Below are positions 3,608-11,380 of a DNA stretch of 11,380 nucleotides, piece after piece. Under the pieces are notes generated by a model, which was not told the origin of the DNA, made no database searches, and was given only the letters and a program-made list of their open reading frames with translations. Position 1 is the first letter of the stretch. Each line of letters starts with the position of its first letter. The position numbers and the translations under genes were made by a program. Source of the stretch: Escherichia coli (GTDB lineage Bacteria; Pseudomonadota; Gammaproteobacteria; Enterobacterales; Enterobacteriaceae); assembly GCF_003334255.1 (NCBI RefSeq), contig NZ_QOWU01000083.1; one strand, 5' to 3'.

Positions 3608-3772
3608 TGGTGTTTTTTTGGTGTGTGTTTGGGTATGTTTTGGGTTTTAAGTGGGTTTGTTTGTCAAGTTTACCCCATTTCAACCATCAATCAATGATTA
3701 TTTGTCTTGTTTTGGTGTTTTATTGGGTTGGGTATGGGTTGTTTTTGGGTTTTGTTTGGCGGGTAACAAAAG
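3608..3772 (-). promoter_or_regulatory. parC: parC centromere/promoter region: two blocks of about five 11-bp iterons flanking the parMR promoter
   Basis: 11-bp periodic T/G-rich repeats on the + strand (for example ttgggtatgtt, ttgggttttaa, gtgggtttgtt, then after a ~45-bp spacer ttgttttggtg, ttttattgggt, tgggtatgggt, tgtttttgggt, tttgtttggcg). The spacer, read on the minus strand, contains TTGATT-16 bp-TAAACT and TTGACA. Architecture matches established R1 parC (10 iterons around the promoter). Confidence 0.7.
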
Positions 3773-4108
3773 ATGTCGCCGGGCTCCTCTTTTTACTGCG
3801 CCGGCTGACGCGGCGCGGCAGGAACGCTGCCTGTGGTCAGTGTCCCGCGTCCGGCCGGGCACGGGACGGGCGCTTTTACCGCTCCCGGCTGGCGTTGGTG
3901 ACAGTGTACGCCAGCCCGTCGCCCTTTTCTGATGAACGCCCTTCAAGCCGCTTTCGCGGCATATCCTCGCCGTCAAAAAGACGACGGCTGCGGTATTCCA
4001 CGGTCGGCCTGACCCGTTACCGGACGCGGTGAACAGCCCACAGGCAGCGGGGAACGGGCACCACAGGGGTGCCCTCCCGGTGCCCTCTGTAAGAGAAGGA
4101 GTGCTGTT
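3773..4108 (+). promoter_or_regulatory. Long GC-rich untranslated leader upstream of the methyltransferase operon; candidate structured promoter/ssi-like element
   Basis: About 335 bp with no credible ORF (only overlapping R/P/G-rich frames on both strands). Shares the 13-mer TGAACAGCCCACA (4030-4042) with 8399-8411. Ends with RBS AAGGAG before ATG 4109. Confidence 0.3.
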
Positions 4109-4792
4109 ATGTCCCGTTTTATCCTGGGTGACTGCGTGCGTGTTATGGCCACGTTTCCGGGCAATGCTGTCGATTTCATCCTCACCGACCCGCCGTATCT
4201 CGTCGGTTTCCGTGACCGTTCCGGGCGCACCATCGCCGGCGATAAAACCGATGAATGGCTGCAACCAGCCTGTAATGAAATGTACCGCGTACTCAAAAAA
4301 GACGCGTTAATGGTGAGCTTCTATGGCTGGAACCGCGTCGATCGCTTTATGGCCGCCTGGAAAAATGCGGGATTCAGCGTTGTTGGTCACCTGGTCTTCA
4401 CCAAAAACTACACATCGAAGGCCGCATATGTGGGCTATCGCCACGAATGTGCCTACATCCTGGCAAAAGGCCGTCCACGTCTGCCACAAAACCCGCTGCC
4501 GGACGTGCTGGGCTGGAAATATTCGGGCAATCGCCATCACCCGACGGAAAAGCCCGTTACCAGCCTGCAACCGCTGATTGAGAGCTTCACACACCCGAAC
4601 GCAATTGTGCTGGACCCGTTTGCAGGCAGCGGCTCAACCTGCGTCGCCGCCCTCCAGTCCGGACGCCGGTATATCGGTATCGAGCTGCTTGAGCAGTATC
4701 ACCGTGCCGGGCAGCAACGCCTTGCCGCCGTGCAACGGGCCATGCAGCAGGGGGCCGCGAATGATGACTGGTTTATGCCGGAGGCTGCGTAA
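4109..4792 (+). CDS. Orphan DNA methyltransferase, N6-adenine/N4-cytosine beta class (PF01555-like)
   Basis: 227 aa. Motif IV DPPY near the N-terminus (LTDPPYLVG) and motif I near the C-terminus (VLDPFAGSGSTCVAA), the order typical of beta-class amino-methyltransferases. Good RBS AAGGAG before the ATG. No adjacent restriction endonuclease candidate. Confidence 0.85.
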   Translation: MSRFILGDCVRVMATFPGNAVDFILTDPPYLVGFRDRSGRTIAGDKTDEWLQPACNEMYRVLKKDALMVSFYGWNRVDRFMAAWKNAGFSVVGHLVFTKNYTSKAAYVGYRHECAYILAKGRPRLPQNPLPDVLGWKYSGNRHHPTEKPVTSLQPLIESFTHPNAIVLDPFAGSGSTCVAALQSGRRYIGIELLEQYHRAGQQRLAAVQRAMQQGAANDDWFMPEAA

Positions 4793-5014
4793 ATGAACTA
4801 TGCAGGACACGAAAAACTGCGCGCCGAAGTGGCGGAGGTGGCCAATGCCATGTGCGACCTGCGTACAACCATGAATGAGATGGAGCAGCGGTACAGCTTT
4901 AATGCCGACACCCTGCCGGAACGTCTGGTGCGTCAGACGCTGTTTCGCGCAAACCGCCTCCTGATGGAGGCATATACCGAAATTCTGGAACTGGAAGCGT
5001 GCTTTAAAGATTGA
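4793..5014 (+). CDS. Hypothetical protein (73 aa), translationally coupled to the methyltransferase
   Basis: ATG immediately follows the methyltransferase TAA (TAAATG); GGAGG lies about 10 nt upstream; GC-rich codon usage consistent with neighbours. No recognisable family. Confidence 0.55.
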   Translation: MNYAGHEKLRAEVAEVANAMCDLRTTMNEMEQRYSFNADTLPERLVRQTLFRANRLLMEAYTEILELEACFKD

Positions 5015-5027
5015 GAAGGAGACGAGA

Positions 5028-5462
5028 ATGTACGGAACATGCGAAACGCTATGCCGGGAGCTGGCAGTAAAGTATCCGGGAGACATGCCGCTGATGCTGG
5101 TTATCTGGTCCCCGGAAGAGATTCAGGCACTGGCTGACGGTATGGAAATTTCTCTGACCGGTCATGAAATCAGGACCGTCCTGGCACGCCTGGAGGACAT
5201 CCCGGAAGACCAGCGGATTGAGTCCGGTATTTCTTCCGCTGCGGTGATGGAGATTATCCGCAACGAGAGCGAAAACCGCCTGGTGACCGTCCCTGCTGAA
5301 CTGCTGGCGTCCCTGATTCAGACCGCTGAACAGGCATTGTGGAAACGTGAATGGGCCGCCCGGGATCATGGCCTCGCCGTCCCGGAATGCGTCACCCGCC
5401 GTCAGGAGGTGGTTAATCAGGCCCGCACCCTGCTGAAAAACAACACACACGAAAACGACTGA
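5028..5462 (+). CDS. Conserved plasmid protein of unknown function (144 aa; possibly DUF1380-like), paralog of 7179-7601
   Basis: RBS GAAGGAGACGAGAATG. Aligns by eye with the 7179-7601 product (MY.T...RE...SLT..E..TV..RL.D...RxVTVPA..L). The DUF name is recalled, not verified. Confidence 0.6.
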
Positions 5463-6289
5463 TGTTATCGCCGCCTGCCCTGCGGGCGGCGATACAGGGA
5501 GAACGCTTAATCATGAACGAAAACAGCACGCTGAACGCACTGATTTGTCGTCACGCCCGCAACCTGCTGCTGGCGCAGGGCTGGCCGGAAGAGACGGATG
5601 TTGACCAGCGTAACCCGAAGTATCCGGGCTGGATCAGCATTTATGTTCTGCTGGATGCGCCCCGGCTGGCGACGTTACTTATCAACCGTCACGGCGGCGT
5701 ACTGCCGCCGCTCCTGGCCTCCGCCATTCAGAAACTGACCGGAACCGGGGCGGAACTGGTACTGTCCGGCAGTCAGTGGCAGTCGCTGCCGGTACTTCCG
5801 GCAGACGGAACGCAGGTGTCTTTCCCGTATGCCGGAGAATGGCTGACCGAAGACGAAATCAGGGCTGTACTTGCGGCGGTGCGCGATGCGGTACGCAGTG
5901 TCAGTTGCCGGGTGGCAGAAGATGCGCGGCGTATCCGGGCGGCGCTGACCACCACCGGTCAGACGTTGCTGACTCGCCAGACGCGCCGCTTTCGTCTGGT
6001 TGTGAAGGAAAGCGATCACCCCTGCTGGCTCGATGAAGATGACGAAAACCTGCCCGTGGTGCTCGATGCCATCGTGAACCGGGGAGCACGTTTTTCGTCG
6101 GTGGAAATGTACCTGGTCAGCGATTGTATTGAGCATATCCTGTCCAGTGGGCTGGCCTGCGATGTGCTGCGTATACCGGATGAACCGCCCCGCCGCTGGT
6201 TTGACCGTGGTGTTCTGCGGGAGGTGGTCCGGGAAGCCCGGGCCGAAATCCGCAGCATGGCGGATGCCCTGGCAAAAATCCGGAAATGA
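5462..6289 (+). CDS. Hypothetical protein (275 aa; alternative start ATG 5513 giving 258 aa)
   Basis: ATG 5462 overlaps the upstream stop (TGATG). An internal ATG at 5513 has its own RBS (AGGGAGA). Long GC-rich ORF co-oriented with neighbours. No recognisable motif. Confidence 0.6.
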
Positions 6290-6706
6290 TGACGTTGGCG
6301 GGGTAAATCCCCGCCTTTTTCCTGCCGGTCCCCGGACAGAGCACAAAGGAAGTCGCCGCCGGCTCCGCTTTACCCGGCCATGCAGGGCATGGCCTTGTGG
6401 TTTTTCAGTTATGTGGCCTCAGCGTCGTGTGCGGGCTGTGCCGTGCCTCCATCTTAGCCGGGCTGGCAGGGATGCAAGGGTACGCTTCGCCGCTGCGGTC
6501 ACCCGGTCCCTCCTTCCCGTCTGCCGTGATTTTCCGGTCGTTCACCCGCTCAGATTTCGCGGTCTCACCCTCCAACTCCCGCCAGCCGTGTGCGTCAGGC
6601 TGCGGCTTCCCTTGCGCCCTGTGCATCCCCGCCTTATCGCCCGGCTTTTATGGAGGCACGGCACCGCCCGGTGTCGCGGAATATGTGAACAACGGAGGAA
6701 AACATC
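6290..6706 (+). promoter_or_regulatory. GC-rich about 415-bp untranslated region upstream of klcA; candidate structured promoter/ssi-like element
   Basis: No credible ORF (the 6129-6734 and 6397-6741 frames are R/C/W/P-rich and overlap). Ends with TGAACAACGGAGGAAAACATCATG (RBS GGAGGA before klcA ATG 6707). Confidence 0.3.
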
Positions 6707-7132
6707 ATGCAATATGCGAAACCTGTCACTCTGAACGTTGAAGAGTGCGACCGTCTCTCCTTTCTACCGTATCTGTTTGGCAACGATTTTCTGTATGCCG
6801 AGGCGTATGTGTACGCGCTGGCGCAAAAAATGATGCCGGAATATCAGGGAGGCTTCTGGCACTTCATCCGCCTGCCGGACGGTGGCGGTTACATGATGCC
6901 GGATGGCGACCGTTTCCACATGGTGAACGGTGCAAACTGGTTTGACCGTACCGTGAGTGCTGATGCCGCAGGCATCATTCTGACTTCCCTTGTGATTAAC
7001 CGCCAGTTGTGGCTGTACCACGACAGCGGGGATGCAGGACTGACCCAGCTTTACCGGATGCGCGATGCGCAGTTGTGGCGTCACATCGAATTTCACCCCG
7101 AATGCAACGCGATTTACGCGGCACTGGACTGA
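6707..7132 (+). CDS. klcA: KlcA/ArdB-family antirestriction protein
   Basis: 141 aa; ...[68 protein letters not shown]... matches my recollection of KlcA/ArdB (Antirestrict family) proteins on IncF/IncP/IncN plasmids. RBS GGAGGA 7 nt upstream. Confidence 0.85.
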
Positions 7133-7141
7133 TTAACGGAC

Positions 7142-7160
7142 GGGGCGGCAATGCCGCCCC
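7142..7160. other. Intercistronic GC hairpin (GGGGCGGC-AAT-GCCGCCCC) directly upstream of an RBS
   Basis: Perfect 8-bp GC stem with 3-nt loop, 10 nt after the klcA stop and immediately before AAAGGAGACGAGAACATG. No downstream T-run, so not a canonical intrinsic terminator. Confidence 0.5.
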
Positions 7161-7178
7161 TGTAAAGGAGACGAGAAC

Positions 7179-7601
7179 ATGTACTGTACTGTTAAAGAAA
7201 TTATCCGCGAAGTGCTGAACACAGACGTGCCGGACAGTGAATGCGTTTTTGCCGTGGTGCTGACCCGTGGGGATGTGCGTCACATAGCCCAGGACTGGAG
7301 TCTGACAGACGATGAGCTGGAAACCGTCATGCAGCGACTGGACGATGCCTTTGCGCATGGTGCGGATGTCAGCATTGTTCACGACGTTGTTCGTGAGCTG
7401 ATGGAAGAAAAGCGCGCCAGCCGTCAGGTGACAGTTCCGGCGGTGATGCTGGAAAAAGTGATGGCGCTGGCAGGCAGTGAAATGAAGCGCCTGTATGCCG
7501 TCGGGAGCGAGAACGGGGGCGACGGTGACGCATTCGTCAGGGAAGAACGCGAAGCAATGGACGTTGTGTTACAGGCGCTGGACGGGGAGCACATGTCATG
7601 A
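7179..7601 (+). CDS. Conserved plasmid protein of unknown function (140 aa; possibly DUF1380-like), paralog of 5028-5462
   Basis: RBS AAAGGAGACGAGAACATG nearly identical to that of 5028. Sequence similarity to the 5028 product along the whole length, including the shared VTVPA motif. Confidence 0.6.
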   Translation: MYCTVKEIIREVLNTDVPDSECVFAVVLTRGDVRHIAQDWSLTDDELETVMQRLDDAFAHGADVSIVHDVVRELMEEKRASRQVTVPAVMLEKVMALAGSEMKRLYAVGSENGGDGDAFVREEREAMDVVLQALDGEHMS

Positions 7602-7789
7602 ATATCAGCACAGAAACCCGCGAAATTCTGCGCAATTACAAAGCCGTGATTAATGCGCGGCGTCGTGAAATGGGGCAGAAACCGCTCACCACTGCGCAGA
7701 TTGTTGATGAAATCTGCGATTTTGTGGCGAATCAGCAGGCTGTATTCCTCGGCGGTCACTACATCCTTCAGGGCAGCATAAACAGGTGA
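7598..7789 (+). CDS. Hypothetical small protein (63 aa), translationally coupled (ATGA overlap)
   Basis: ATG 7598 overlaps the TGA of the upstream gene; co-oriented; no recognisable family. Confidence 0.45.
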   Translation: MNISTETREILRNYKAVINARRREMGQKPLTTAQIVDEICDFVANQQAVFLGGHYILQGSINR

Positions 7790-7957
7790 TACAGGGGCAG
7801 GCGGTGGAGGCCGCCTGTCAGCCCGCGCGAAAACCCCTGGCAGGCTGACGCCTGCCGGAAGGGAAGCGGGCCACGCTGGCGCGTCGCCCGTTACCCTTCC
7901 CGTCTGTGATGTGTCTGACTCAGGAGTGTTTCTTTCTTATGTTATGGAACTGTTCCT

Positions 7958-8058
7958 GATGTTGTTGTTCCTTTATCTACTGCTCTGATTCTGACTACTG
8001 CAGTGTTGTTCTGTCTGCCGGGCGCACCTTCGGCTCCCGGCTGCCTGGCGGCATCCGG
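7958..8058. repeat. Copy 1 of a repeated leading-region element (77-bp core with 1 mismatch to copy 2)
   Basis: Core 7982-8058 (GCTCTGATTCTGACTACTGCAGTGTTGTTCTGTCTGCCGGGCGCACCTTCGGCTCCCGGCTGCCTGGCGGCATCCGG) matches 11304-11380 with a single T/C difference. The upstream GATGTTGTTGTTCC (7958-7971) is also shared with 11247-11260. Confidence 0.6.
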
Positions 8059-9108: not shown

Positions 9109-10470
9109 ATGACATTAGCAGCAATCACCATGACCGCCCCGGAAGCCGCCAGCCCTGTGCAGATGTACCGCGCGACCTACTCACCGGATGACAACAAACT
9201 GCGCCTGTATGCCGTGTCACGTCTTGACCCGGAGACGTATAAAAAAGTGCATGATGCTGGTTTTCGCTGGGCACCAAAACAGGCGCTGTTTGTCGCGCCA
9301 GCCTGGACACCGGGCCGGGAAGACGTGCTCCTCTCACTTGCCGGAGAGATTGAGGATGAAGACAGCACGCTCGCTGAACGTCAGGAAGCACGGGCGGAGC
9401 GGTTTACCGGATACAGCGGAAAGCGGGCCAGTGAATCCGCACAGGCACTTGATGAAGTGGAAAGACTGGCCGCGATGATCCCGCCCGGTCAGCCCATTCT
9501 TGTGGGGCATCACAGCGAACGCCGCGCCCGTCGTGATGCGCAGCGTATTGAAAACGGCATGAAACGTGCCGTGATGCTCTTTGAACGTGCGGAATACTGG
9601 GAAGAGCGGGCGCGGTCGGCACTGCTTCACGCGAAGTATAAAGAACGTCCGGACGTTCGCTGGCGTCGTATCAAAAAAATCGAAGCTGATTTGCGCAAGG
9701 CTGAAAAGACCATCGCGCAGTCGCAGAAATATCTGACGATGTGGCGGGCTGAATCGCTGGATCTGAATATGGCAAAACTCATCAGCAGTCATGACCATAT
9801 CAGCGCCTGTTTCCCGCTGGATACGTATCCGCGCCCGGCAGAAAAAAGCCAGTATGAAGGGAGCCGGTCGTTATGGTCGGCCCTGGATGATGACATCATC
9901 ACCACGGAGCAGGCCCGCGAAATTGCGATCCGCTGTCATGAACGGCAGATTCAGCATCAGCAACGCTGGGTTAACCACTATCAGAACCGCCTGATCTATG
10001 AGCGTGCCATGCTGGACGAAAGCGGCGGCGTGGTTACCCGGACACAGGATTTTGAGCCGGGCGGACAGGTTTTCAGCCGGGGCGAGTGGCTGACCATCAT
10101 CCGCGTGAACAAAAGCAACGGGGCGGTGAGTTCAGTCACAACGCCGAATTACAGTTTTCTCGGGTACAGCGGCACGATGAAAGTGACGCCCGATCGCATC
10201 ACGGACTACAAAGCACCATCGGCAGAAGAGGCTGCCATCGCCAGCCAGGCCGCGAAGCGTCCGCCGGTAGTCAACTATCCGGGGGAAGGTTTCCGGGAAA
10301 TGACAAAGGCACAGTGGGCCGCCCTGCCCCGGGACTGTAAGGCCGTGCGCAGTGTGGCAGAAGCAGAAGACCACGGGGCATACCGCTACCGCCGCACAAT
10401 GGACAATAATTTCCGCCTGGTGAATGTGTATATCACCGACATGAAAATCACGGAAATCCCACAGAAATAA
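9109..10470 (+). CDS. Conserved plasmid protein of unknown function (453 aa; possibly the DUF3560 family, unverified)
   Basis: Strong RBS AAGGAGA; long ORF with GC-rich codon usage. Central region is highly charged (R/E/K-rich, probably helical). No catalytic motif recognised by eye. Confidence 0.7.
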   Translation: MTLAAITMTAPEAASPVQMYRATYSPDDNKLRLYAVSRLDPETYKKVHDAGFRWAPKQALFVAPAWTPGREDVLLSLAGEIEDEDSTLAERQEARAERFTGYSGKRASESAQALDEVERLAAMIPPGQPILVGHHSERRARRDAQRIENGMKRAVMLFERAEYWEERARSALLHAKYKERPDVRWRRIKKIEADLRKAEKTIAQSQKYLTMWRAESLDLNMAKLISSHDHISACFPLDTYPRPAEKSQYEGSRSLWSALDDDIITTEQAREIAIRCHERQIQHQQRWVNHYQNRLIYERAMLDESGGVVTRTQDFEPGGQVFSRGEWLTIIRVNKSNGAVSSVTTPNYSFLGYSGTMKVTPDRITDYKAPSAEEAAIASQAAKRPPVVNYPGEGFREMTKAQWAALPRDCKAVRSVAEAEDHGAYRYRRTMDNNFRLVNVYITDMKITEIPQK

Positions 10471-10475
10471 GGTAT

Positions 10476-10501
10476 ATCCCCCCGGGAAATCCCCGGGGGA
10501 T
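10476..10501. other. Intercistronic GC stem-loop (ATCCCCC...GGGGGAT) between the 453-aa gene and the downstream methyltransferase
   Basis: 10476-10482 ATCCCCC pairs with 10495-10501 GGGGGAT; the loop contains the palindrome CCCGGG. Followed by RBS GGAGA and ATG 10517. Confidence 0.45.
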
Positions 10502-10516
10502 GACGGAGATAATGAC

Positions 10517-11080
10517 ATGCACAGTCAGTTAAGAGAACGTATCCGGCTGATGCGCGCAAGGCTGGATAACGCCGCGCCGGTTGCTGAAATCCGGGCTGAA
10601 TCTCAGCTTTTTGTGACTCCTGCCCCGGTCTGTGATCGCCTGGTGACGCTGGCGGAAATCAGCAACCGTGATCACATTCTGGAACCCTCTGCCGGCACCG
10701 GGGCCATACTGCGGGCGATTCGGGATACCGCGCCGGAGGCCATGTGTGATGCGGTGGAGATTAACAGCGGGCTGGTCCGGTATCTGCGGGAAAATTTTAA
10801 CGGTGTCAGGGTACAGTGTGGCGACTTCATGGAATGGCAGCCGGTGCAGTATTACAGCCGGATCATTATGAATCCGCCGTTCAGTCACGGGCAGGATATC
10901 CGGCATATCCTGCGGGCTTTTTCCCTGTTGCGTCCGGGGGGCGTGCTGGTTGCCGTCTGTCTCAACGGGCCGCGCCAGCAGGAGAAGCTGTTACCGTTTT
11001 CTGACGTCCGCGAGGAGCTGCCGCGCGGCACGTTTGCTTATACCGATGTCCCGACGATGATTATTCGTTTGCGTGCCTGA
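10517..11080 (+). CDS. Small class I SAM-dependent methyltransferase with amino-methyltransferase NPPF motif (putative orphan DNA or RNA methyltransferase)
   Basis: 187 aa. Motif I-like LEPSAGTGAIL followed about 55 residues later by IMNPPFS (the (D/N)PP(F/Y) motif IV), i.e. a gamma-like order. Too short for a separate target-recognition domain. RBS GGAGA 7 nt upstream. Confidence 0.75.
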   Translation: MHSQLRERIRLMRARLDNAAPVAEIRAESQLFVTPAPVCDRLVTLAEISNRDHILEPSAGTGAILRAIRDTAPEAMCDAVEINSGLVRYLRENFNGVRVQCGDFMEWQPVQYYSRIIMNPPFSHGQDIRHILRAFSLLRPGGVLVAVCLNGPRQQEKLLPFSDVREELPRGTFAYTDVPTMIIRLRA

Positions 11081-11246
11081 TGACACAGGGCTGGCGGGAG
11101 GATAAATGCCCGTCTGTCCGCACCGGGAAAAGACCGCGCGCCGGTGGCGCTGAAAGGGGCCGCGCTCACGCGCCGCCCCTTTCATTACGCGGACGTTCTG
11201 ATGGGGGCTTCTGTCTTTTCAGACCTGTCATTTGTCTGTTACTGAT

Positions 11247-11380
11247 GATGTTGTTGTTCCTGCTACTGCTACTGCTACTGCTACTGCTCTTCTTTTTCCT
11301 GCCGCTCTGATTCTGACTACTGCAGTGTTGTCCTGTCTGCCGGGCGCACCTTCGGCTCCCGGCTGCCTGGCGGCATCCGG
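11247..11380. repeat. Copy 2 of the repeated leading-region element, truncated by the window end; contains a (TGCTAC)4-5 microsatellite insertion relative to copy 1
   Basis: 11304-11380 matches 7982-8058 (76/77). Between the shared GATGTTGTTGTTCC and the core there are tandem hexamers TGCTAC x4 plus TGCTC (11261-11289) that are absent from copy 1. Confidence 0.6.

Follow-up and report, generated by a model that had tools for sequence, protein, structure and literature searches.

The described systems that come closest to the genes considered here act early after DNA entry. The ArdA and Ocr DNA-mimic anti-restriction proteins are small and strongly acidic, are encoded in plasmid leading regions or among early phage genes and are expressed immediately on entry. 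The KlcA/ArdB antirestriction proteins (Pfam PF03230) are acidic and about 140 amino acids (aa) long. PsiB, an inhibitor of RecA, is a small leading-region protein that is made from a single-strand promoter, binds one host protein and is dispensable in standard matings. Here we analysed a stretch of 11,380 nucleotides (nt) of Escherichia coli DNA (contig NZ_QOWU01000083.1 of assembly GCF_003334255.1; hereafter, the window) that carries two genes of Pfam family DUF1380, termed A and B.

A and B are the same genes as those known under this Pfam label as YubF/YcgB and YubJ/YcjA of plasmid F and as Hp10 and Hp12 of pESBL, from which they show no material difference. They share with ArdA and Ocr the small size, the strong acidity, the leading-region location and the expected expression immediately on entry, but a similarity of fold to these proteins was looked for and not found. 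B resembles KlcA/ArdB in acidity, in its length of about 140 aa, in sharing its operon and in early expression, whereas the two sequences are unrelated (local alignment score 23, equal to background), and KlcA is widespread whereas DUF1380 was seen almost only in plasmids of Enterobacterales. PsiB serves as our working model, although it has no homology to DUF1380. We conclude that A and B are almost certainly anciently duplicated members of DUF1380, and we propose that these two position-locked paralogues may be early-expressed, protein-binding establishment factors, an explanation that, taken as a whole, we regard as evenly poised.

A and B are diverged members of one family

The preliminary description of the window, made from its letters alone, had listed two open reading frames (ORFs) of interest, and both are present, encoding 144 aa and 140 aa:

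5028-5462, plus strand: DUF1380 paralogue A (YubF / YcgB / YfcB; Hp10 of pESBL), 144 aa, isoelectric point (pI) 4.8; Pfam PF07128, PHROG 9024
7179-7601, plus strand: DUF1380 paralogue B (YubJ / YcjA / YcgC / YfeC; Hp12 of pESBL), 140 aa, pI 4.5; RefSeq 'DUF1380 family protein', full-length profile match to the A-type clade

That description had also held that the two products align over their full length and are strongly diverged, and this is borne out by pairwise, shuffled and profile comparisons. BLASTP aligned A with B at 29% identity over 111 aa (E 2e-7). Their Smith–Waterman score of 83 exceeded that of the shuffled controls that the description had named as a check (30.4 ± 5.5 over 2000 shuffles of B; z 9.5), with 0 of the 2000 reaching 83, and other window proteins scored 22–53. 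When profiles of the two types, built from 12 A-type and 11 B-type relatives, were aligned by hhalign, the probability was 99.7% (E 5e-27) over 138 columns, so the homology spans the full length. At the DNA level, the codon-aligned coding sequences are 45% identical, and 31% identical at third positions, the longest identical run being 6 nt. A matched the hidden Markov model (HMM) of DUF1380 (PF07128) with E 2.4e-49 over residues 1–136 (model positions 1–137 of 137); B matched it weakly (19.4 bits, E 1.2e-3, residues 1–99). The same model was matched at E <= 0.001 by 18 of 24 aligned family members, and a search with a mixed A/B profile recovered both types.

Both genes are annotated coding sequences (CDSs) in plasmids identical to the window, where RefSeq labels them 'DUF1380 family protein'. 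A is 87–100% identical to CDSs annotated in this way in at least 5000 plasmids, and B is 82–96% identical across the plasmids compared, F included. The annotated starts of A-type genes vary between plasmids, with CDS lengths of 435, 468, 519 and 555 nt (in the comparison loci labelled L002, 6966-7520; L004, 3417-3935; and L005, 3468-3935), and some of the longer annotations reach into yubE, read in a different frame. Support for the 144-aa form of A comes from the ribosome-binding site and the conserved MYGT N terminus.

The paralogue pair as such is already known, in that both genes are labelled DUF1380 in thousands of records. To our knowledge, earlier catalogues treat the A-type and the B-type as two unrelated families, which are listed separately because the Pfam model was built on A-type sequences and detects B weakly. 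Supplementary Table 1 of Samuel et al. 2024 gives the A-type as family 7 (3957 ORFs, 'Uncharacterized; DUF1380', YcgB/YubF) and the B-type as family 14 (3145 ORFs, YcjA/YcgC/YubJ); by size, these are the 7th and 14th of its leading-region-enriched gene families.

Two clades are locked to two operons

The window represents the leading region of a conjugative plasmid of IncF type. Its bases 4700-8000 were matched at 90–100% identity by at least 5000 PLSDB plasmid records, mostly from conjugative IncF plasmids in Escherichia, Klebsiella, Salmonella and Shigella. The annotated maps of plasmid F and of a plasmid identical to the window share a gene order that runs from parM through DNA methylase, a 73-aa ORF, DUF1380 and a 258-aa ORF to a gap, and continues after it with antirestriction (KlcA/ArdB), DUF1380, a 63-aa ORF and, further on, ssb, a parB-like gene, psiB and hok. 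On these maps both DUF1380 genes lie on the ssb/psiB strand, between the partition/maintenance side and oriT. The genes that accompany A and B in the window are as follows:

4109-4792, plus strand: orphan adenine DNA methylase, M.EcoGIX / YfeA homologue, first gene of operon 1; NCBIfam PRK13699, E 2e-150
4793-5014, plus strand: YubE-family 73-aa protein; PHROG 4830, function unknown; orthologues in distant loci carry Pfam PF27407 YubE
5513-6289, plus strand: 258-aa protein (YchA / YubG; Hp11 of pESBL), RefSeq boundaries; PHROG 8919, function unknown
6707-7132, plus strand: KlcA/ArdB antirestriction protein, first gene of operon 2; RefSeq 'antirestriction protein'; PHROG 10132 anti-restriction, E 9e-20; orthologues carry PF03230
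7598-7789, plus strand: 63-aa basic protein (YubK; Hp13 of pESBL); its start overlaps the B stop (ATGA)

A is thus the third gene of an operon methylase (M.EcoGIX homologue)–YubE–DUF1380-A–YchA, and B is the second gene of an operon KlcA/ArdB–DUF1380-B–YubK. The 684-nt length and the position of the methylase gene equal those of M.EcoGIX in the pESBL gene table (PMC4288162), and the order methylase–YubE–A–YchA–KlcA–B–YubK is unchanged in F and pESBL. The pair had been described as flanking KlcA, which fits B, starting 46 nt past klcA, but not A, which lies 1.2 kb upstream of klcA in the other operon; the 258-aa gene and a single-strand promoter hairpin separate A from klcA.

Of 1.84 billion cluster representatives searched with the mixed A/B profile, only 261 matched at E <= 1e-3, and many of these are fragments. 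The diversity came from this search of 50%-identity representatives, since all 120 proteins listed by a search of 90% clusters were at least 81% identical. Foldseek matches in AFDB50 were all DUF1380 proteins, nearly all from Enterobacterales (Escherichia, Salmonella, Klebsiella, Yersinia, Hafnia, Erwinia, Pantoea and Sodalis), with two labelled Acinetobacter and Cereibacter. Neither A nor B had a tblastn match in 50,697 phage records, though A has a PHROG entry.

Gene contexts were examined for eight diverged representatives and, in some of these loci, for a second DUF1380 gene, giving 12 contexts. Each of the seven A-type genes follows an N6_N4 methylase and YubE (PF27407), and each of the five B-type genes lies about 42 nt after KlcA/ArdB (PF03230). 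The position rule was kept in 12 of 12 contexts, including plasmids with proteins only about 30% identical, and several plasmids carry the A-type and B-type arrangements side by side. A neighbour-joining tree of 17 DUF1380 proteins of known context split into two clades that correspond to 'after YubE' and 'after KlcA', with a mean identity of 39% within each clade and 24% between them. A-type and B-type proteins of one and the same plasmid are 22–25% identical. The split by position and the low identity within single plasmids imply that the duplication is older than the divergence of these plasmid lineages, in support of the earlier view of an old duplication retained with divergence. Together, these comparisons of sequence and gene order indicate one ancient duplication, each copy having become fixed in a different operon. 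The rule that ties clade to operon is new in this work and was not noted in earlier catalogues. Two other genes of the operons can be absent: L007, L017 and L022 lack the 258-aa gene, and in L007 and L022 the B-type gene is not followed by an intact copy of the 63-aa gene.

Ribosome-binding sites and candidate single-strand promoters

Near-identical ribosome-binding and start contexts had been reported for A and B. They are real and consist of a non-random 13-mer:

5016-5028, plus strand: ribosome-binding 13-mer AAGGAGACGAGAA of A; starts 2 nt past the yubE stop, its last base being the A of ATG
7165-7177, plus strand: ribosome-binding 13-mer AAGGAGACGAGAA of B; ends 1 nt before ATG

The window contains no third AAGGAGACGAGAA site, even when two mismatches are allowed (0.16 expected). 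In about 20 kb of two other plasmids, exact copies were found only at the two DUF1380 starts, with a few two-mismatch matches elsewhere. Among 10 close plasmids the 13-mer is identical before A in 7 and before B in all 10; in distant homologues the context is purine-rich as well, GGAGA..GA(A/G)A, and resembles the 13-mer without matching it exactly. A perfect AAGGAG Shine–Dalgarno sequence followed by a purine-rich spacer is conserved at both genes. Because the coding DNA of A and B is 45% identical with no identical run above 6 nt, the 13-mer appears to be maintained by selection and to be no leftover of the duplication. This evidence for selection on an identical 13-mer is a modest addition of the present work.

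Upstream of each operon lies a long inverted repeat on the minus strand:

3825-4049, minus strand: long imperfect inverted repeat preceding the methylase operon, candidate class 3 type single-strand promoter hairpin on the transferred strand; 30-nt arms, 83% complementary
6432-6670, minus strand: long hairpin upstream of klcA, corresponding to ssp2 / Frpo3 / class 2 single-strand promoter; 32-nt arms, 88% complementary

When folded as single-stranded DNA (ssDNA), the minus strand gave −72.8 kcal/mol at 3825-4049 (z −5.1 against shuffles) and −74.3 kcal/mol at 6432-6670 (z −5.8). The position of the first equals that of the ssDNA promoter of the M.EcoGIX operon described for pESBL and F (PMC12672017), and the position of the second matches the F literature, between yffB and yfgB(ArdB). 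The same work used RNA sequencing and 5′ rapid amplification of cDNA ends to map the class 3 and class 2 single-strand promoters in pESBL, which are conserved in F, and it reports operon-level data in which transconjugants of both pESBL and F show induction of the KlcA operon and of the M.EcoGIX operon (PMC12672017). In F, ssp2 drives ardB and downstream genes (bioRxiv 2026.01.09.698686), and ssp2/Frpo3 is also a replication roadblock (bioRxiv 2026.01.09.698686; bioRxiv 2025.04.03.647016). High codon adaptation has been reported for this gene cluster in F (bioRxiv 2025.04.03.647016).

A and B are acidic helical proteins

The net charge is −10 for A and −15 for B, and all 24 aligned family members are acidic (pI 4.3–5.2). 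AlphaFold2 models built from the 24-sequence alignment had mean confidence scores (pLDDT) of 87.4 for A and 81.4 for B and were all-helical. Structure prediction had been proposed as a check on the pairing, and the two models share one helix order, namely an N-terminal helical part, an R-x-V-T-V-P linker and a long C-terminal helical hairpin; as both models come from one alignment, the shared topology is no independent test. A predicted template modelling score (pTM) near 0.6 and a large root-mean-square deviation from other DUF1380 models suggest a flexible junction in the predicted structures of A and B.

No structural relatives outside DUF1380 were found by Foldseek against AFDB50 or by a profile search of PDB sequences, the latter returning only designed helical proteins with marginal E-values. 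No enzyme, DNA-binding, defence or toxin family matched A or B in Pfam, NCBIfam, PADLOC or PDB sequences.

A motif at residues 105–127 of the 258-aa protein recalls the DUF1380 motif SLT(D/G)xE(I/L)xTVLxRL(E/D)D. A DUF1380-like domain at this place (5828-5878) was considered and rejected, the hhalign match covering 23 columns at 20% probability.

A possible role in plasmid establishment

We propose that, within minutes after its transfer, the incoming single strand would serve as template for the transcription of both genes, along with the anti-restriction genes that they follow, and that A and B would be translated efficiently from their strong ribosome-binding sites. Each would act by binding another protein. 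One possibility is that A and B independently inhibit two different factors of host defence or stress; the other is that they assist the methylase/YubE arm and the KlcA arm as accessory partners. In either case the paralogues would be specialized for different partners. Transfer between K-12 strains would not need them, and they would matter only with certain recipients. In transposon-insertion sequencing (TnSeq) of pESBL, Hp10 (435 nt) and Hp12 (423 nt) were scored 'non-essential 1.00' for maintenance and K-12 transfer, as was M.EcoGIX, which yet protects the plasmid against restriction in suitable recipients (PMC4288162). Binding to a protein is proposed because A and B are small, acidic and helical, lack a catalytic or nucleic-acid-binding signature and lie beside two anti-restriction devices. 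As a mechanism of establishment or anti-defence, the latter made plausible by the gene context, it is tentative, and we would place it somewhat short of an even chance.

Several points weigh against the proposal. The searchable literature holds no experiment on any DUF1380 protein and assigns no function to one. No binding partner of A or B is known or predicted, and the evidence for induction is at the operon level, not gene-level values for the A and B ORFs. Acidity carries little weight, since many cytoplasmic proteins are acidic, and the L017 lineage has KlcA without a B-type gene. In that literature DUF1380 is mentioned only incidentally, in 4 papers, and matches to the gene names are unrelated chromosomal genes that share them; a paper on protein translocation by F does not mention these DUF1380 genes. 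One candidate mention, 'yfhA' (PMC10104558), was set aside because it is a ParB-like gene.

A wider version of the proposal would make DUF1380 a new class of plasmid establishment/anti-defence protein, the A-type acting with or alongside the methylase arm and the B-type with or alongside KlcA/ArdB, and each neutralizing a different host factor; we consider this conceivable but doubtful. The hairpin, the purine-rich ribosome-binding site and the ORF would then form a conserved expression cassette that was duplicated whole. Alternatively, within the same version, B could be a cofactor that explains why ArdB/KlcA reportedly inhibits type I restriction in vivo yet fails to do so in vitro.

The strict synteny, kept in all 12 contexts with proteins down to about 30% identity, also fits a reading in which each DUF1380 protein is a dedicated accessory subunit, chaperone or modulator of the upstream product, A serving the single-strand methylase and/or YubE and B serving KlcA/ArdB, and in which neither acts as an effector in its own right. 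Tight spacing points the same way, the Shine–Dalgarno sequence of A lying 2 nt past the yubE stop and B starting 42–46 nt past klcA, and the in vivo-only activity that KlcA/ArdB is said to have leaves room for a cofactor. However, KlcA/ArdB proteins that are cloned on their own are active in vivo; DUF1380, with its 261 representatives (E <= 1e-3) of 1.84 billion, is much less widespread than KlcA (PF03230); and the L017 lineage keeps KlcA with no B-type gene. M.EcoGIX expressed from artificial constructs is described as methylating DNA without its plasmid neighbours (PMC7736820). We judge a dedicated partnership rather unlikely.

Purifying selection on A and B

The preliminary description had attributed the divergence of A and B to diversifying selection, that is, to an arms race in which they are anti-defence effectors that diverge against fast-changing host targets. 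The ratio of nonsynonymous to synonymous substitution rates (dN/dS) was estimated by the Nei–Gojobori method over 10 plasmids, gene-wide and with recombination ignored, and gave the following values:

methylase: 0.11
YubE: 0.17
A: 0.29
258-aa gene: 0.20
KlcA: 0.09
B: 0.28
63-aa gene: 0.09

This indicates that A and B are under purifying selection, which is weaker than on the neighbouring genes; they are the least constrained of the seven genes of the module, the others having 0.09–0.20. Replacements concentrate in residues 11–20 of A and 57–72 of B, a descriptive observation; in the A patch there are 12 extra amino-acid states against 4 synonymous. Many B-type alleles carry an in-frame VHGV insertion (VVHGVVHGVVH; protein P0027) in the variable patch at window positions 7350-7395 (B residues 57–72), which looks like repeat slippage. 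Both clades share a core of M1, G67, R84-x-V-x-V-P89, L93 and L136, and each has further conserved positions of its own.

An arms race would draw support from the two highest dN/dS values of the module, from the clustered replacements and the VHGV insertion in the B patch, and from the leading-region, anti-restriction context. Yet the gene-wide ratios lie far below 1, and the divergence between A and B is ancient and saturated (third-position identity 31%). The clades are, moreover, conserved internally, with about 39% mean identity across very different plasmids and clade-specific invariant residues, and the sample is small, at 10 plasmids, taken gene-wide with recombination ignored. The dN/dS check thus cuts both ways, purifying gene-wide while elevated and patchy relative to the module, and at the level of whole genes the ratios and the clade-specific residues do not support diversifying selection; at single sites, positive selection is conceivable. 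Purifying selection together with clade-specific conservation fits functional specialization after duplication, not continuing gene-wide diversifying selection, and we regard the arms race as clearly unlikely.

Gene junctions and intercistronic hairpins

Each DUF1380 gene had been described as translationally coupled to the ORF behind it, and of the two overlaps only the one behind B is borne out. The ATGA overlap of B with the 63-aa ORF at 7598-7601 is kept as a stop/start overlap in 10 of 10 close plasmids (ATGA, with TAATG in one), and in the distant lineage L019 a 47%-identical YubK homologue overlaps the B-type gene. By contrast, the TGATG at 5460-5464 behind A does not couple it to the downstream gene, whose RefSeq start is 5513 (258 aa), with a GGGAGA Shine–Dalgarno sequence of its own. 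In F and L006 the loop of the intervening hairpin is 5 nt shorter, which puts the ATG of TGATG out of frame with the downstream gene; as the start at 5462 is not conserved in frame, and given the RefSeq boundaries, the true start of the 258-aa protein is 5513. It is upstream that A is tightly packed: the methylase stop abuts the YubE start (TAAATG), and the Shine–Dalgarno sequence of A comes 2 nt past the YubE stop. The hairpins at these junctions are the following:

5463-5496, plus strand: GC-rich hairpin between A and the 258-aa gene, with no T-run after it; RNA fold −25.3 kcal/mol
7142-7160, plus strand: 8-bp GC hairpin (GGGGCGGC-AAT-GCCGCCCC) between klcA and B; RNA fold −18.4 kcal/mol

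The first is conserved in 10 of 10 close plasmids, with variants of loop length. A hairpin of other sequence precedes the B-type gene in five distant loci (L007, L009, L012, L019 and L022), and one is also found before the A-type genes of L007, L010, L019, L021 and L022. Almost every DUF1380 gene in the lineages examined has, about 10–20 nt before its Shine–Dalgarno sequence, a GC-rich hairpin with a stem of 6–9 bp, a loop of 3–7 nt and no T-run, the stems being kept while the sequences differ between lineages. A of the window lacks this upstream element, since only 13 nt separate it from the yubE stop, and has a strong hairpin directly downstream instead. The hairpin before DUF1380 genes possibly serves in RNA processing or stability and may have belonged to the duplicated unit; its conservation before almost every family member is a modest addition of this work.

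In L022, at about 5460-5650, and with the same sequence in L023, the YubK homologue stands behind a hairpin, has its own ribosome-binding site and contains an in-frame stop, and is a possible pseudogene.

The overlap of B with yubK, conserved in the IncF/IncI group and in L019, and the opposite charges of the two products would suit a toxin–antitoxin-like pair in which acidic B (net charge −15) neutralizes small, basic YubK (63 aa, pI 9.1). We consider such a pair highly unlikely: no toxin–antitoxin or defence family in NCBIfam, PADLOC or PHROGs matched B or YubK, B matching DUF1380 only; B is kept in L007 with no visible YubK homologue, while the homologue of L022/L023 is stop-interrupted and uncoupled; the A-type paralogue has no such partner; and transposon insertions in Hp12 and Hp13 were equally tolerated, which is weak evidence owing to polarity. 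That A and B are hitch-hiking ORFs with no function of their own, kept only inside useful operons, would agree with the absence of a phenotype in the pESBL TnSeq and of a known function, but it is disfavoured as exceedingly improbable, given that both frames are open and under purifying selection, that clades about 24% identical have both kept the R-x-V-T-V-P motif and the fold-level pattern, and that a conserved strong ribosome-binding site precedes each gene.

Repeats elsewhere in the window

Between parM and the hairpin of the methylase operon, at 3612-3759, lie degenerate 11-nt tandem repeats rich in T and G (GTTTTTTTGG-like; 3.5 and 4.9 copies). A direct repeat occurs at 7949-8058 and 11271-11380, with copies of at least 110 nt that are 88% identical and the second of which runs off the window end. 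Its copies follow the 63-aa ORF and an S-adenosylmethionine (SAM)-dependent methyltransferase gene, respectively, and bracket an insert of DUF3560 and methyltransferase genes (9109-11080) that is absent from plasmid F. The repeat is probably the duplicated start of an Frpo/ssi-type single-strand promoter region. Within the repeated element, a perfect hexamer repeat, (CTGCTA) x 4.8 at 11260-11288, gives a poly-leucine reading frame in the ORF at 11080-11310.

Implications

In Enterobacteriaceae, antibiotic resistance is carried mainly by IncF and IncI plasmids, whose leading regions determine whether a transferred plasmid survives the first minutes in a new host. A and B point to two very abundant and still uncharacterized putative establishment genes in these regions. 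Seeing them as one ancient family, split into two position-locked clades (one with the single-strand methylase and one with KlcA/ArdB) and held under purifying selection, narrows the hypotheses about what they do.

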